IMG/VR virus record: IMGVR_UViG_2585427747_000005
From: a virus
Lineage: Duplodnaviria; Heunggongvirae; Uroviricota; Caudoviricetes
Strand: one strand, 5' to 3'
Length of the DNA stretch: 11,454 bases
Position 1 is the first letter of the stretch; the number at the start of each line of letters is the position of its first letter. Position numbers and translations under genes: made by a program. Shown here in pieces: positions 2,856 to 11,454 of the stretch. The notes under the pieces are model-generated. The model searched no databases, had not been told where the DNA came from, and was given only the letters and a program-made list of their open reading frames with translations.

Positions 2856-3141
2856 AAACCGCTTGCAAAAAATTATCACGGGGCTGTATGCTTCCCCCGT
2901 CGCCCACATGGCGACCGGGTTTGACAGCCTGAATACATCTGGCGGACAGCCGCCCACATCCGATAAGCGGTTTTTTTGTGTCCGTAAACCTACCCATACC
3001 CGCATTATGGCGGGGCGTAACGGGGGAGCCTTTGTGCTCGCTGGTTTCCAGATGACCAGTCTGTCAACCCTGTTACGTCTCGCCACCATGTTTGACAGCG
3101 TAGTAGCGAGACTCCTTAAAATTCATCTGGGAGCCTTTCAC

Positions 3142-6258: not shown

Positions 6259-6270
6259 TTTTTTGCAATG

Positions 6271-6498
6271 GCTGTCTACCCTGTCTACCTGAGTAAAGAA
6301 AAATACATTTAATTCAGTATATTAACTTAGGTAGGCAGCCTTTTTTCACTGTCTACCTACTATCTACCCTCTCTACCTGATTTTACCTGAATCAGACAGG
6401 GAGGTAGATACGGGGTAGATAGTGGATAAAAGCACTCTACCCCGCTGAAAGCCGCGCCATTACTGGCATGAGAGCCAGTAAGGTAGATAAGGTAGACA
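6271..6498. repeat. Origin of replication: iteron array (TGTCTACC and variants, both orientations)
   Basis: TGTCTACC at 6273, 6282 and 6350; ATCTACC at 6362; CTCTACC at 6371 and 6434; inverted GGTAGATA/GGTAGACA at 6403, 6414, 6482 and 6491; immediately downstream of the replication gene. Confidence 0.7.
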
Positions 6499-6546
6499 AG
6501 GGGAGGCACAACTCAAAACTTTTTAAACGAGGGGGTAAAAATAAAA

Positions 6547-9702: not shown

Positions 9703-9770
9703 ACGGGTCCTTTCCGGCATATGGACCCGTTACGGGGCGGCGACCTCGCGGGTTTTCGCTATTTATGACG
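9703..9770 (+). other. cos: Lambda-type cos site (cosQ-like segment plus cosN GGGCGGCGACCT at 9735-9746)
   Basis: ACGGGTCCTTTCCGG...CCGTTACG|GGGCGGCGACCT|CGCGGGTTTTCGCTATTTATGA matches remembered lambda cos flanks, diverging only in the cosQ-cosN spacer. Confidence 0.8.
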
Positions 9771-9835: not shown

Positions 9836-10276
9836 ATGATTGATAAAGCTTGTTTTGTAAGTCAGCAGGAAATAGCTGAACATTTCAAGGTTAACAGAAC
9901 CACTATTCGCGCATGGACCAAACAGGGGATGCCGTATCTTAATGCGGATCGCGGAAAGTCTGGCGGTTATCACATCGGGCATACATTGCTTTGGTCTTCA
10001 GGTAAAAGCCGTCTTGAGGCCATCAGATATCACGTAGAAACCAGTGCGCTGGAAAAAATTATGTTTGCCAGGCTGCTTTCATCTGAGCGTGACGAGTACT
10101 CCAGTGAAGAAACAGAACATAGATTTGATGAAGGTTTACAGATTTACGGCTACTCACCGGAAGAAGTGAGCAAAGCGCGAAATAAAATGGCCGGCTTTCT
10201 GGCTGGGTGGCGTCATGCCGTAAGCGTTCGCCGTGCCAGCATGGAACAATCAGTCGTTACAGAACAGCAAAGTTAA
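9836..10276 (+). CDS. Terminase small subunit homolog (lambda Nu1-like wHTH); Rpp-like packaging-redirection candidate
   Basis: 146 aa; VSQQEIAEHFKVNRTTIRAWTKQGMPYL parallels lambda Nu1 KKQLADIFGASIRTIQNWQEQGMPVL; no large terminase gene in the window. Confidence 0.8.
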   Translation: MIDKACFVSQQEIAEHFKVNRTTIRAWTKQGMPYLNADRGKSGGYHIGHTLLWSSGKSRLEAIRYHVETSALEKIMFARLLSSERDEYSSEETEHRFDEGLQIYGYSPEEVSKARNKMAGFLAGWRHAVSVRRASMEQSVVTEQQS

Positions 10277-10469: not shown

Positions 10470-10537
10470 GCTCATAAATAGCGAAAAACCGCGAGGTCGC
10501 CGCCCCGTAACGGGCCATAATTCCAGGAAGGACCCGA
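10470..10537 (-). other. cos: Second cos copy in inverted orientation (cosN GGGCGGCGACCT on the minus strand, 10494-10505)
   Basis: Reverse complement reads CGGGTCCTTCCTGG...CCGTTACG|GGGCGGCGACCT|CGCGGTTTTTCGCTATTTATGAG, an imperfect inverted repeat of 9703-9770. Confidence 0.7.
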
Positions 10538-10569: not shown

Positions 10570-10851
10570 ATGACAGAAGCCGAACTACTGGGATTAATCC
10601 GCCGCGTTACCGGAATCAGCCAGCAGCATGACGAACAGGCCACGCAGCCGGACAGCGTGACCGCCGAAAATTACGCGCGTGTGGTTGCTGAGGTGATGCG
10701 CCGTGATGGTATCCAGCTTAATGATGTGGATATGCGCAACATACGGATCCGCGTTCTTGAAATGCTGGCCTACAATCGCCGCGTGGCACTGTATCGGGAA
10801 ACGGAGAAAATTACGTACCACTGGAAGAAGCCGGAGCGGTTACGGCGTTAA
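10570..10851 (+). CDS. Hypothetical protein
   Basis: 93-aa ORF, G-rich Shine-Dalgarno; no recognisable motif. Confidence 0.5.
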   Translation: MTEAELLGLIRRVTGISQQHDEQATQPDSVTAENYARVVAEVMRRDGIQLNDVDMRNIRIRVLEMLAYNRRVALYRETEKITYHWKKPERLRR

Positions 10852-10867
10852 CGAGTAGCGACATACC

Positions 10868-10902
10868 GTGACGGAGAGTGACAACCAGTGACACGCCGTG
10901 AC
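10868..10902. repeat. Four GTGAC motifs at exact 10-bp spacing
   Basis: GTGAC at 10868, 10878, 10888 and 10898 (cGTGACg, aGTGACa, aGTGACa, cGTGACa). Confidence 0.5.
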
Positions 10903-11221
10903 AAAAGACGGTTTAACCGTTAATTAAAAATTGACGGGATTTTATGCTTTCCGGACGACGTGACCAACGTCATTTTTTAGCGAAAAGTTCTGATTAAGGT
11001 CATTGTCTGAATGGTCATAATGACCACTCCTACAAAACAGGTAAAGCCCACCAGCCTGATTAACAGTTAACCGGAAAAAAAATCCGGTAGCCCCGTTATG
11101 GGGATCCCCATATCAACATTAACGCCCCTCATGAATTAGCGCGCTTCCCCCTGGAAAGATGACCCGCCTGTATATTTCTTGTGTCTATTTGTTCCACGTT
11201 GTTTCATACAGTGCACCGAAC

Positions 11222-11243
11222 GGTGTAGTCACTGGTGTAGTCA
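11222..11243. repeat. Tandem 10-bp direct repeat GGTGTAGTCA x2 near the right junction
   Basis: GGTGTAGTCA at 11222-11231 and 11234-11243; adjacent palindromes CACCG-aa-CGGTG (11213-11224) and TGGGGATCCCCA (11099-11110). Confidence 0.4.
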
Positions 11244-11307
11244 TTTTGCGATTTATGGCACTTTTTGTAGTGCAAATCATTTAATTAAATCAATGCGTTA
11301 AGTGAAA

Positions 11308-11454
11308 TTAGTTATATATAACAGCAATAAATAATGCGAGAATAAACGGCACGATGATCTCGGCGGCAAAACGGATACCGCAGAGAATAATGACCAGCAT
11401 TCCCAACATAATGACGATTTTTAGGCCATTGAGCGTGATGATCGGCTTTGCCAT
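11308..11454 (-). pseudogene. tqsA: 5' fragment of an AI-2E family transporter gene (tqsA/ydgG-like), interrupted after about 46 codons
   Basis: Minus-strand translation [45 protein letters not shown] matches my recollection of the E. coli TqsA N-terminus, then diverges (IYN, stop at 11308-11310). Confidence 0.55.

Follow-up and report, generated by a model that had tools for sequence, protein, structure and literature searches.

Does the gene-free right end of this stretch serve over its whole length as the attachment arm of an integrated element, and do the phased GTGAC repeats within it belong to the recombination machinery? We addressed this question in a sequence of 11,454 nucleotides (the window), in which positions 10852-11310 had been read, in the initial annotation, as the likely att arm, carrying integrase arm-type or Xis/AlpA-type sites. 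Judged by its insertion site and its genes, the stretch is an EcCICFT073-type PICI (a phage-satellite island) of 11.5 kb, inside the E. coli gene tqsA. The island interrupts tqsA, and a 9-bp sequence, ATAACAGCA, is common to attL (L001 3407-3415), attR (window 11318-11326) and the empty K-12 tqsA (attB), where it occurs once. In K-12-type genomes the match to the window begins at 11318, with nothing before it. The crossover identity at 11318-11326 thus places 10852-11310 at the right end of the island.

The island carries int, alpA, pri-rep with an ori, lambda E/D-like capsid genes, a likely rpp and orf93. This content agrees with that of EcCICFT073, including homologues of its capsid gene c1499 and decoration gene c1500 and the two cos sites (PMC6092414, PMC6739421). 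Between the two cos sites lies a small Nu1/TerS-like HTH gene of 146 aa with weak Pfam HTH matches only, taken here to be the likely rpp. The island's own ori-like region (6270-6500) has TCTACC-type iterons in two sets around an A+T-rich centre, a layout that agrees with the published organisation (PMC6092414).

On comparison with related islands, the non-coding right end (10852-11326) proves to be a mosaic, made up of four modules that can be exchanged separately: A (10858-10902, plus strand), the GTGAC array; B (10903-11010, plus strand), which is A+T-rich and holds a palindrome and two terminator-like hairpins; C (11010-11090), a block common to many islands; and D (11090-11326), the probable integrase P arm. 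The region had been described as ORF-free, and this description held. Its longest ORFs reach at most 41 aa, and RefSeq leaves the interval from the 93-aa gene to the tqsA fragment without annotation. An Rfam scan of the window matched only C4/isrK antisense RNAs at 2886-3090, and no family in its right arm or in the longer arm of L004. A search of the arm for promoters returned one weak promoter-like site (minus strand, 10966-10939), no more than in shuffled sequence.

Palindromes were abundant in the region: 9 entries, with arms of 5 or more and a spacer no longer than 2, were counted against a mean of 1.65 in 1000 dinucleotide shuffles scored by the same rule (P about 0.001), two palindromes having been entered under two spacer settings, so that the 9 entries stand for 7 distinct palindromes. 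The 5+2+5 palindrome CACCG-AA-CGGTG by itself would fall short of significance. The sequence elements listed in the initial annotation were all recovered. TGGGGATCCCCA (11099-11110) and the GGTGTAGTCA tandem (11222-11243) lie exactly as annotated, CACCG-AA-CGGTG (11214-11225) was 1 bp out of place, and TGGTCAT-A-ATGACCA, first put at about 11009-11023, lies 3 bp away at 11012-11026. The four GTGAC motifs at exact 10-bp spacing (10868-10902) are likewise present and non-random. Overlooked in that annotation were a second phased array (TTGT), the palindrome ACGGTT-T-AACCGT, the two terminator-like hairpins and a core palindrome, GTTATATATAAC.

The recombination arm probably corresponds to module D only, the last ~230 bases of the right end (about 11090-11326). 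It ends in the attR core (11311-11326), which combines ATAACAGCA, the 9-bp identity, with the palindrome GTTATATATAAC (11311-11322). Two copies of GGTGTAGTCA with a 12-bp period (11222-11231 and 11234-11243, plus strand), 96 and 84 bp from the core, are candidate arm-type integrase sites; the first is overlapped by CACCG-AA-CGGTG. Exact GGTGTAGTCA pairs stand in the same orientation at -96/-84 in the P arm and at +137/+149 in the P' arm, where the pair adjoins int (L001 3544-3565). Both arms of L007, an EcCIEDL933-type island of another O157:H7 strain, show the identical GGTGTAGTCA layout despite a different core, and the Int of that island is 91% identical to ours. Present on both arms and distinct from the core, the tandem thus appears to behave like an arm-type site. 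The N-terminus of Int (residues 4-91) matches Arm-DNA-bind_3 (PF13356, E = 1.3e-18), and among 8 islands the arm repeats co-vary with integrase type: the tandem is TGTGTGGTCA in L011, whose Int is 67% identical, and the arm repeats are GTTATACG in L006 and L010, whose Int is 25% identical.

A second set of phased repeats sits 17-43 bp upstream of the arm-type tandem: TTGTGTC, TTGTTCC and TTGTTTC, at 11179, 11189 and 11199 (plus strand), follow each other at an exact 10-bp period, and a weak fourth unit, (CA)GTGCA, extends the span to 11215. The phased TTGTT pattern occurs in only two places in the window (in 0 of 200 shuffles), the other being a 5-unit TTGTT(C) array upstream of alpA (1267-1311); such arrays are confined to the arms and to the region upstream of alpA. 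Further copies of the TTGT repeats stand in the P' arm, at L001 3502-3538, and both L009 and L011 have them in their arms. Together with the GGTGTAGTCA tandem they form one module of roughly 65 bp, present in direct orientation on both arms. Among the 6 islands compared for AlpA, those with allele 2 (L009, L011) have related CGAAC repeats upstream of alpA and three copies of TTGTTCG in the arms, and those with allele 3 have other repeats. These observations suggest that the TTGT repeats at 11179-11215 may be AlpA/RDF-type sites of the P arm, fitting an Xis/AlpA-type role, and Int or a host protein instead of AlpA could be what binds them.

Two further elements lie in module D. The perfect 16-bp palindrome TATGGGGATCCCCATA (11097-11112), centred on GATC and holding TGGGGATCCCCA as its core, is kept in L004, L005 and L008 and is 20 bp long in L010. 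L010 is a tRNA-Pro island, and TGGGGATCCCCA, though located in module D, is therefore not integrase-specific. An IHF-consensus match, AATCAATGCGTTA (11288-11300, plus strand), lies 18-30 bp from the core, and an IHF-like sequence is found at the equivalent position in L004, L005 and L008. These functional assignments draw on position, repetition and co-variation, the last taken from 8 islands. On this basis, excision would join the P arm, the core and the P' arm as attP. Int would bridge the GGTGTAGTCA arm sites and the core, and IHF would bend the DNA at 11288-11300. AlpA would act as a directionality and architectural factor through the phased TTGTT(C) repeats, which also stand upstream of its own gene. 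AlpA is reported to switch on its own promoter and, when over-expressed, to bring about int-dependent excision and replication (PMC6092414).

The GTGAC array of module A does not follow this pattern. It consists of a degenerate GCGAC at 10858 and of GTGAC at 10868, 10878, 10888 and 10898, all on the plus strand with an exact 10-bp period. A scan of the entire 11.4-kb window for GTGAC-N5-GTGAC with at most 1 mismatch gave 4 overlapping matches, all in the array, against a shuffle mean of 0.38, and 0 of 200 shuffles reached 4. Helical phasing, together with a position on the island's side of the junction, is what one would expect if the entire 460 bp were an att arm in which the repeats served as Int or AlpA/Xis sites for excision and integration. 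The same explanation gains from pSAM2, whose excisionase has phased repeats containing GTCAC as its binding sites, and from the 9-mer ACCAGTGAC (10884-10892), which is the exact reverse complement of GTCACTGGT within the arm-type tandem, but such an inverted 9-mer match is expected about 0.5 times per 540 bp by chance, and ACCAGTGAC is also kept where the arm motif of the island differs. The array is separated from the core by 416-460 bp that include terminator-like hairpins and exchangeable blocks, and no GTGAC array was found in the attL arm or near alpA.

The distribution of the array points the same way. It is present, nearly unchanged, in L006 and L010, which combine a 25%-identical Int with another AlpA allele and other attachment sites, yet it is absent from L004, L005 and L007, which have the window's AlpA and P arm. 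L007 has an identical AlpA and its 91%-identical Int, and L005, for which int lies outside the compared sequence, matches the window in its tqsA site and in its P arm. Thus, the array co-varies neither with integrase type (8 islands) nor with AlpA allele (6 islands), and the array-bearing islands differ in integrase, replicon and capsid module. We conclude that an att-arm function of the GTGAC repeats is highly improbable and that the array is best described as a portable unit separate from the recombination machinery, apparently untied to Int or AlpA type. The earlier reading of this end as an att arm is supported for the DNA adjoining attR, given the arm-binding domain of Int and the presence of GGTGTAGTCA on both arms, and disfavoured for the GTGAC array. 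Similarly, the proposal of phased direct repeats of Xis/AlpA type suits the TTGT repeats (11179-11205), which it had not named, and not the GTGAC motifs to which it had been applied. The palindrome TGGTCATAATGACCA, for its part, sits in a block common to islands of unrelated integrase.

That block is module C, which alignment of relatives delimits from TGGTCAT-A-ATGACCA to CCCACCAGCCTGATTAACAGTTAACCGGAAAAAAAATCCGG; with the palindrome TGGTCATAATGACCA, it occurs in islands of unrelated integrase type. Relatives have two copies of the palindrome flanking about 85 bp, and the window has one, with a deletion of roughly 85 bp between the two copies. A small coding ORF in module C was rejected, since no frame was both open and conserved throughout in a six-frame comparison of five islands. 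In module B, the palindrome ACGGTT-T-AACCGT (10908-10920) is accompanied by terminator-like hairpins at 10917-10937 and at 10957-10971, the latter followed by a T run (plus strand). Terminator-like sites numbered 4 against a shuffle mean of 1.2, and the likeliest role of module B is to end transcription of the long rightward operon. A query made up of the array and module B (10852-11010) found matches in 267 genomes out of 5426 from E. coli, some of them to the array without module B and others to module B without the array; the segment at query positions 53-159 was the part of module B matched in genomes lacking the array.

A mosaic of this kind, with the ~85-bp deletion in the window and with repeated copies of the orf93 3' end in relatives, is also what would be seen if the array and the upstream blocks were young, non-functional leftovers of satellite/lambdoid recombination that hitch-hike with orf93. 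The identity of the array among islands is about equal to that of the flanking DNA. At 85-100%, the array is conserved no better than orf93 next to it, and so gives no sign of purifying selection on the array itself. However, the array has four kinds of left flank and two kinds of right flank among islands, which is hard to obtain from hitch-hiking alone, and the matches in 267 genomes include islands of differing integrase, replicon and capsid. Five units in exact 10-bp phase with diverged spacers are also no product of recent slippage. We therefore regard such an origin as unlikely.

The constant position of the array directs attention to its neighbour. orf93 (10570-10851, plus strand) is the terminal gene of the island operon and encodes a hypothetical protein of 93 aa (WP_000133427.1). 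It is the final gene ahead of the arm in 8 of 8 related islands. The array always lies downstream of it in one orientation, and homology among islands begins and ends at the array edges. The 3' UTR RNA including the array folds somewhat better than shuffled sequence (z = -2.5). A common island protein, for example that of orf93, or a host protein might accordingly bind the array at the operon 3' end as a roadblock, an insulator or a nucleoprotein cap. The orf93 family is conserved (970 close homologues) yet narrow (only 38 clusters at 50% identity); the protein matches phrog_1561, a family of unknown function, and no Pfam family, and a search of species-representative genomes found it at one locus only, in Shigella. 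Its AlphaFold model is all-helical, with three helices, and of low confidence (mean pLDDT 66). A Foldseek search of the PDB with this model gave no fold match at E <= 0.001 (the best, at E = 1.4, is meaningless). orf93 thus lacks a DNA-binding signature, and its alleles do not co-vary with the presence of the array, the array-less L004 having a 92%-identical orf93. Adjacency would suffice to explain the co-inheritance of the two, and binding at the operon end by such a protein seems improbable.

A different hint to the role of the array came from phage sequences. GTGAC-N5 x4 arrays were found in at least 120 viral contigs, and 39 of 79 distinct arrays lay, in one orientation throughout, inside ORFs like replication-initiation or O-like proteins (phmmer E <= 1e-5 to eight ORFs with matches of their own to PHROG replication-initiation / O-like families). 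Read along the initiator gene, the core GTGAC is GTCAC. The island array and the commonest E. coli-type array have the unit GTGACACGCC in common, and 2078 of the 5426 E. coli genomes (38% of complete genomes) encode a GTGAC-type initiator. As about half of these unrelated arrays lie inside O-like initiator genes, the island array may be an orphan set of phage O-type iterons, a reading that we consider possible but doubtful. The DNA beside the array (10903-10950) has about 60% A+T, and a G+C hairpin block takes its place in L010 and L011.

Several results speak against the iteron reading. The phage arrays are intragenic and that of the island is intergenic, and, relative to the array, the island's A+T-rich segment is on the side opposite to the purine-rich tract of the phage genes. 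No O-like initiator homologue was found in 7 islands by phmmer, and hhalign of orf93 and of the 137-aa and 85-aa ORFs against an initiator N-terminal profile gave nothing. A BLAST search of the phage collection yielded nothing useful. The annotated gp15 sites of the helper phage phi80 are of the GGGAA/TTCCC type and unlike GTGAC, and lambda iterons also differ from the GTGAC type. Our literature search on GTGAC iterons or GTCAC excisionase sites found nothing relevant. We discarded two other origins for the array. Descent from an O-like gene found no support in tblastn or blastn-short, which showed no similarity past the motif. Nor are the repeats the island's own ori iterons, which are of TCTACC type at another position, with no GTGAC repeats found in 6270-6500.

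Taken together, our results are best explained by a PICI right-end mosaic in which the arm is module D and the array stands outside the recombination machinery, and we consider this reading probable. Module A would then consist of protein-binding-type repeats on one helix face that move among islands independently of int, alpA, replicon and capsid. By motif resemblance, the array might, in the mechanism that we favour among doubtful ones, bind the initiator of replication from a lambdoid phage, either a helper or a co-resident, and titrate or recruit it: an amplified island could soak up the initiator of a helper or competitor or, as a second option, replication could be fired from a helper-supplied initiator. 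The combined proposal, that orphan iterons at the PICI/cf-PICI operon end, of the GTGAC type employed by O-like initiators in a very common class of lambdoid prophages, are used in trans and that AlpA acts as RDF via TTGTT on both arms, is rather unlikely as a whole.

These findings chart, base by base, the recombination arm in the EcCICFT073/EcCIEDL933 family, from the core and the IHF-like site to the arm-type sites and the phased repeats of TTGT, and set a portable GTGAC array apart from integrase function. If AlpA does act at both att arms, this would explain why AlpA over-expression alone results in int-dependent excision. A decoy or borrowed origin for O-like initiators would give the conflict between satellite and helper a further layer, one acting through DNA, and titration, if true, would be a new DNA-based interference mechanism; if the iteron reading is false, the locus is an ordinary mosaic island end.

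The predicted arm resembles the heterobivalent integrase attP sites of lambda Int and of the P4-type KplE1 integrase IntS with its RDF TorI. A core palindrome flanks the crossover identity, arm-type direct repeats distinct from the core stand on both arms, an IHF-consensus site lies beside the core, and Int has the Arm-DNA-bind_3 domain. The phased repeats by the arm sites would suit several copies of a small winged-helix RDF; TorI has five cooperative sites in KplE1 attL (PMC3509656). Unlike in those systems, the core identity of the island is only 9 bp and lies within protein-coding tqsA rather than a tRNA gene, and the ~65-bp module of TTGT repeats and arm sites is duplicated directly on both arms. 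The candidate RDF also differs, being AlpA; in EcCICFT073 this protein has so far been described only as an activator of the island cycle (PMC6092414).

Among satellites, the island shares its gene order with EcCICFT073 and EcCIEDL933 (PICI and cf-PICI; Fillol-Salom 2018, 2019; Alqurainy et al. 2022): int, alpA, pri-rep with ori, lambda-like capsid and decoration genes, and a cos-flanked HTH gene. The right-arm modules, arm-type sites and GTGAC array are not described in those papers. EcCIEDL933 is reported to undergo induction and high-frequency transfer (bioRxiv 10.1101/2022.09.08.507074), and its O157 relative L007 is without the array altogether.

With the iterons inside phage O genes (lambda ori in O; phi80 sites in gene 15), the island array has in common 4-6 direct repeats at the helical period and, with those of GTGAC type, the core and the unit GTGACACGCC. 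It differs from them in being intergenic, in an island that has no initiator gene, and in showing no homology past the motif. In P4 crr and P1 incA, initiator-binding repeats away from the origin modulate replication by binding the element's own initiator. The island likewise has a second repeat cluster, but this one mismatches its own ori iterons, and any initiator that binds it would thus have to come from another phage.

A BLAST search of complete E. coli genomes showed that several E. coli chromosomes contain a segment identical to the window. In strain SW4848 (locus L001), the genes run from the 3' part of tqsA through those for the integrase (int), an AlpA-like regulator (alpA), Icd-like products, a DUF4222 protein, a D5/DUF5906 primase, SSB, a lambda-E-like capsid and a gpD-like decoration protein to two small genes, orf93 (93 aa), about 460 bp of gene-free DNA and tqsA codons 1-48. 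Pfam confirmed the integrase (Arm-DNA-bind_3 and Phage_integrase), AlpA, capsid protein E and decoration protein D. The lambda-type cohesive-end (cosN) sequence GGGCGGCGACCT, embedded in about 45 bp of similarity, is found on the plus strand at 9735-9746 and, inverted relative to this copy, on the minus strand at 10494-10505. A Nu1/TerS-like HTH gene (9836-10276, 146 aa), which gave sub-threshold Pfam HTH matches only and which we take to be rpp, sits between the two. The published layout of EcCICFT073 comprises cos1, cos2, rpp, the capsid gene c1499 and the decoration gene c1500, and the two cosN sites of the window are the counterparts of cos1 and cos2 (PMC6739421, PMC6092414). Since its gene and cos organisation matches that of EcCICFT073, the window is an EcCICFT073-type phage-inducible chromosomal island (PICI).

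Two further regions of the island were observed. Positions 6270-6500, 3' of the primase gene, are origin-like, with many (C/T)TCTACC iterons, direct and inverted, around an A+T-rich centre, a layout as described for E. coli PICIs; the two-strand Rfam 'mir-3927' match there is spurious, produced by this origin-like region. At 2886-3090, Rfam matches to C4 antisense RNA (72.6 bits) and to the a1/b1 target (46.8 bits) both exceeded their gathering scores, and an isrK match (35.2 bits) fell below its cut-off of 50. We suggest that this early-region RNA is a P1/P7/P4-type antisense immunity RNA.

Comparison of the empty site of K-12 (gttaagaATAACAGCAataaataatg) with attL of SW4848 (gttaagaATAACAGCAttttatcattt) and attR of the window (agttatatATAACAGCAataaataatg) gave a crossover identity, or core, of 9 bp at 11318-11326, and in thousands of island-free genomes the BLAST match starts only at 11318. 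Thus, the region 10852-11310, which the initial annotation had presented as a likely att arm, is all island DNA, ending at attR. A 12-bp palindrome, GTTATATATAAC (11311-11322), extends across the junction. The island interrupts the coding sequence of the AI-2 transporter TqsA, separating codons 1-48 from the rest (window 11311-11454 and L001 2509-3414), so carriers should be without functional TqsA.

The motifs of that annotation are all present, with TGGTCAT-A-ATGACCA displaced by 3 bp (true position 11012-11026), CACCG-AA-CGGTG by 1 bp (11214-11225) and the other coordinates correct. The region is indeed ORF-free (longest ORF at most 41 aa), and no Rfam family matched in it. Its palindrome density, 9 entries (7 distinct) against a shuffle mean of 1.65, is about five-fold enriched (P about 0.001) when shuffles are counted in the same way as the real sequence, duplicates included. 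The phased GTGAC array, four copies and a degenerate GCGAC at a 10-bp period, is non-random, being unique in the window and reached by 0 of 200 shuffles. Only two arrays in 11.4 kb contain 5-mers repeated at least three times at 10- or 11-bp spacing, namely GTGAC and four to five AACAA at 1267-1311.

The right-end comparison drew on eight related islands, which occupy five attachment sites (tqsA, roxA/phoQ, tRNA-Pro/yejO, clpS and rcnR/thiM) and carry capsids of three types, namely lambda-like, HK97-like cf-PICI and protease-capsid fusion. On this comparison, the right end resolves into four modules, A-D. Module A (10858-10902) is the GTGAC array. Module B (10903-11010) is A+T-rich and carries the palindrome ACGGTT-T-AACCGT and two plus-strand hairpins followed by T runs; a scan including this module counted four terminator-like sites against a shuffle mean of 1.2. 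Module C (11010-11090) is present in most compared islands irrespective of integrase. Its palindrome TGGTCATAATGACCA occurs once in the window versus twice, about 85 bp apart, in L003, L004 and L008, where the copies read ATG(G/A)TCATAATGA(C/T)CA (L003 6105-6220; L004 5900-6010), and the missing ~85 bp looks like a deletion between palindrome repeats. Module D (11090-11326) occurs only in islands with an integrase related to that of the window. The array-plus-B query (10852-11010) matched 267 of 5426 genomes by BLAST, and the match classes, comprising array with B, array without B and B without array, confirm that the modules are independent.

Several palindromes of this arm family have GATC at the centre. 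In cf-PICI relatives, orf93 is followed by three to five copies of a unit resembling its 3' end, GGCGCGGTAACTnnnTGATATT (L004 5430-5900, L005 5505-5900, L008 10264-10530), each with a partner perfect hairpin such as GGAAACCTCAATTTGAGGAAGTC; in L003, a PerC-family moron is inserted in this space.

The GTGAC repeats had been read as integrase arm-type or Xis/AlpA-type sites. The array lies 416-460 bp from the core, a search of the attL arm found no copy, and it is near-identical across islands with unrelated integrases and AlpA alleles, showing no co-variation with either, which makes that reading highly improbable. L004, L005 and L007 are without the array though they share the window's AlpA, P arm or both; L007 is an O157 island of EcCIEDL933 type, and EcCIEDL933 was induced and transferred in experiments (bioRxiv 10.1101/2022.09.08.507074). 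The array and the arm tandem share an exact 9-mer in inverted orientation, no more than chance would give, and the same 9-mer is kept in islands with a different arm motif. Judged by these comparisons, the GTGAC array is not part of the integrase/AlpA machinery. Inter-island homology starts at the first GTGAC and stops at GTGACAAAAAGACGG, with four different left and two different right flanks, which makes the array itself the conserved unit. It is a portable module of its own, and most of the palindromes likewise belong to modules that are separate and exchangeable. That it is bound by an island-encoded or host protein is quite unlikely.

Module D is the predicted recombination arm. GGTGTAGTCA occurs twice to the left of the core, at distances of 96 and 84 bp, and on the attL arm, about 35 bp upstream of int, the pair recurs unchanged and in unaltered orientation to the right of the core, at 137 and 149 bp. 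L007 (O157:H7), whose Int is 91% identical and whose core differs (GGACATATTT), has GGTGTAGT(C/T)A pairs at the equivalent positions in each arm. In L011, with 67% Int identity, two TGTGTGGTCA show the 12-bp period of the window; in L006 and L010, where Int identity is 25%, GTTATACG repeats stand in place of the window's arm motif. We infer that GGTGTAGTCA is a putative Int arm-type site. Just upstream of the tandem, TTGT units follow an exact 10-bp period on both the window arm (11179, 11189, 11199) and the other arm (L001 3502, 3512, 3522, 3532). Within the window, phased TTGTT is confined to this arm and 1267-1320, and 0 of 200 shuffles match. At the latter, between the int stop and alpA, five AACAA (TTGTT in minus-strand sense; 1267-1311) recur at an exact 10-bp period, the motif being that of the phased repeats of both att arms, and form a candidate AlpA operator. 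In EcCICFT073, the alpA promoter is activated by AlpA itself, and AlpA over-expression leads to int-dependent excision and replication (PMC6092414). In L009 and L011, which carry the related AlpA allele 2, alpA is preceded by CGAAC repeats and the arms contain three TTGTTCG, and the repeats are of other kinds in islands where AlpA is the highly divergent allele 3; this comparison lends partial support to a TTGT/AlpA link, and the TTGT repeats are putative AlpA (RDF-type) sites. An IHF-consensus match, AATCAATGCGTTA (11288-11300), is positionally conserved in L004, L005 and L008. Taken together, these results suggest that the region serves a P4-type integrase as its attP arm, within an already known PICI family. 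The att-arm reading is partly supported: this is an att-proximal island end that contains arm-type sites and phased sites of RDF type. The GTGAC array is not among them; the true sites would be GGTGTAGTCA and the TTGT repeats, unlisted in the initial annotation, in the last 230 bp.

Scanning IMG/VR for the exact phased GTGAC pattern returned at least 120 contigs with at least 79 distinct arrays, nearly all of which show no relation to the island beyond the motif itself. Among the matches listed, 39 of 79 arrays lie wholly inside an opposite-strand ORF phmmer-similar to eight reference ORFs labelled 'replication initiation protein / O-like / primosomal protein' in PHROGs (one has a DnaT domain), and about 20 more fall in ORFs that have no assignment and are 100 aa or longer. 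Repetition every 10 bp is incompatible with a peptide repeat. Of 5426 complete genomes, 2078 contain the N-terminal part of this initiator gene in its commonest E. coli version. Ori-lambda lies inside O, with iterons within the initiator gene, and the gp15 sites of phi80 are annotated within gene 15, the same intragenic arrangement as that of the phage GTGAC arrays. The location in initiator genes suggests that phased GTGAC in phage DNA is mostly an origin-iteron signature.

The common O-like initiator gene of E. coli (L134 888-1958 and L027 3839-4891) has its GTGAC repeats in two clusters, at about 150 and 410 nt, which encode the conserved peptides NVT.GH and DVT.CH.ESR.VT, and these bases appear to double as coding sequence and putative iterons. 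Another family of phased GTGAC arrays, with units ACGGTGACAA / TTCAGTGACA in four to at least eight copies (IMG/VR contigs L024 3951-3985, L045, L047, L103 and L125), occupies a short gap between large-terminase and portal genes, not a replication gene.

We found no cognate initiator in the islands and no homology of the island array's flanks to the phage arrays. That the island array is a non-functional relic is unlikely. The iterons of phi80 differ from GTGAC, as do the TCTACC iterons of the island's own origin. With these differences set against the shared motif and unit, it is possible, if rather doubtful, that the array represents orphan O-type iterons working with an initiator from another phage: it matches the phage O-type arrays in motif, period, copy number and one whole unit, GTGACACGCC, but differs from them in being intergenic.
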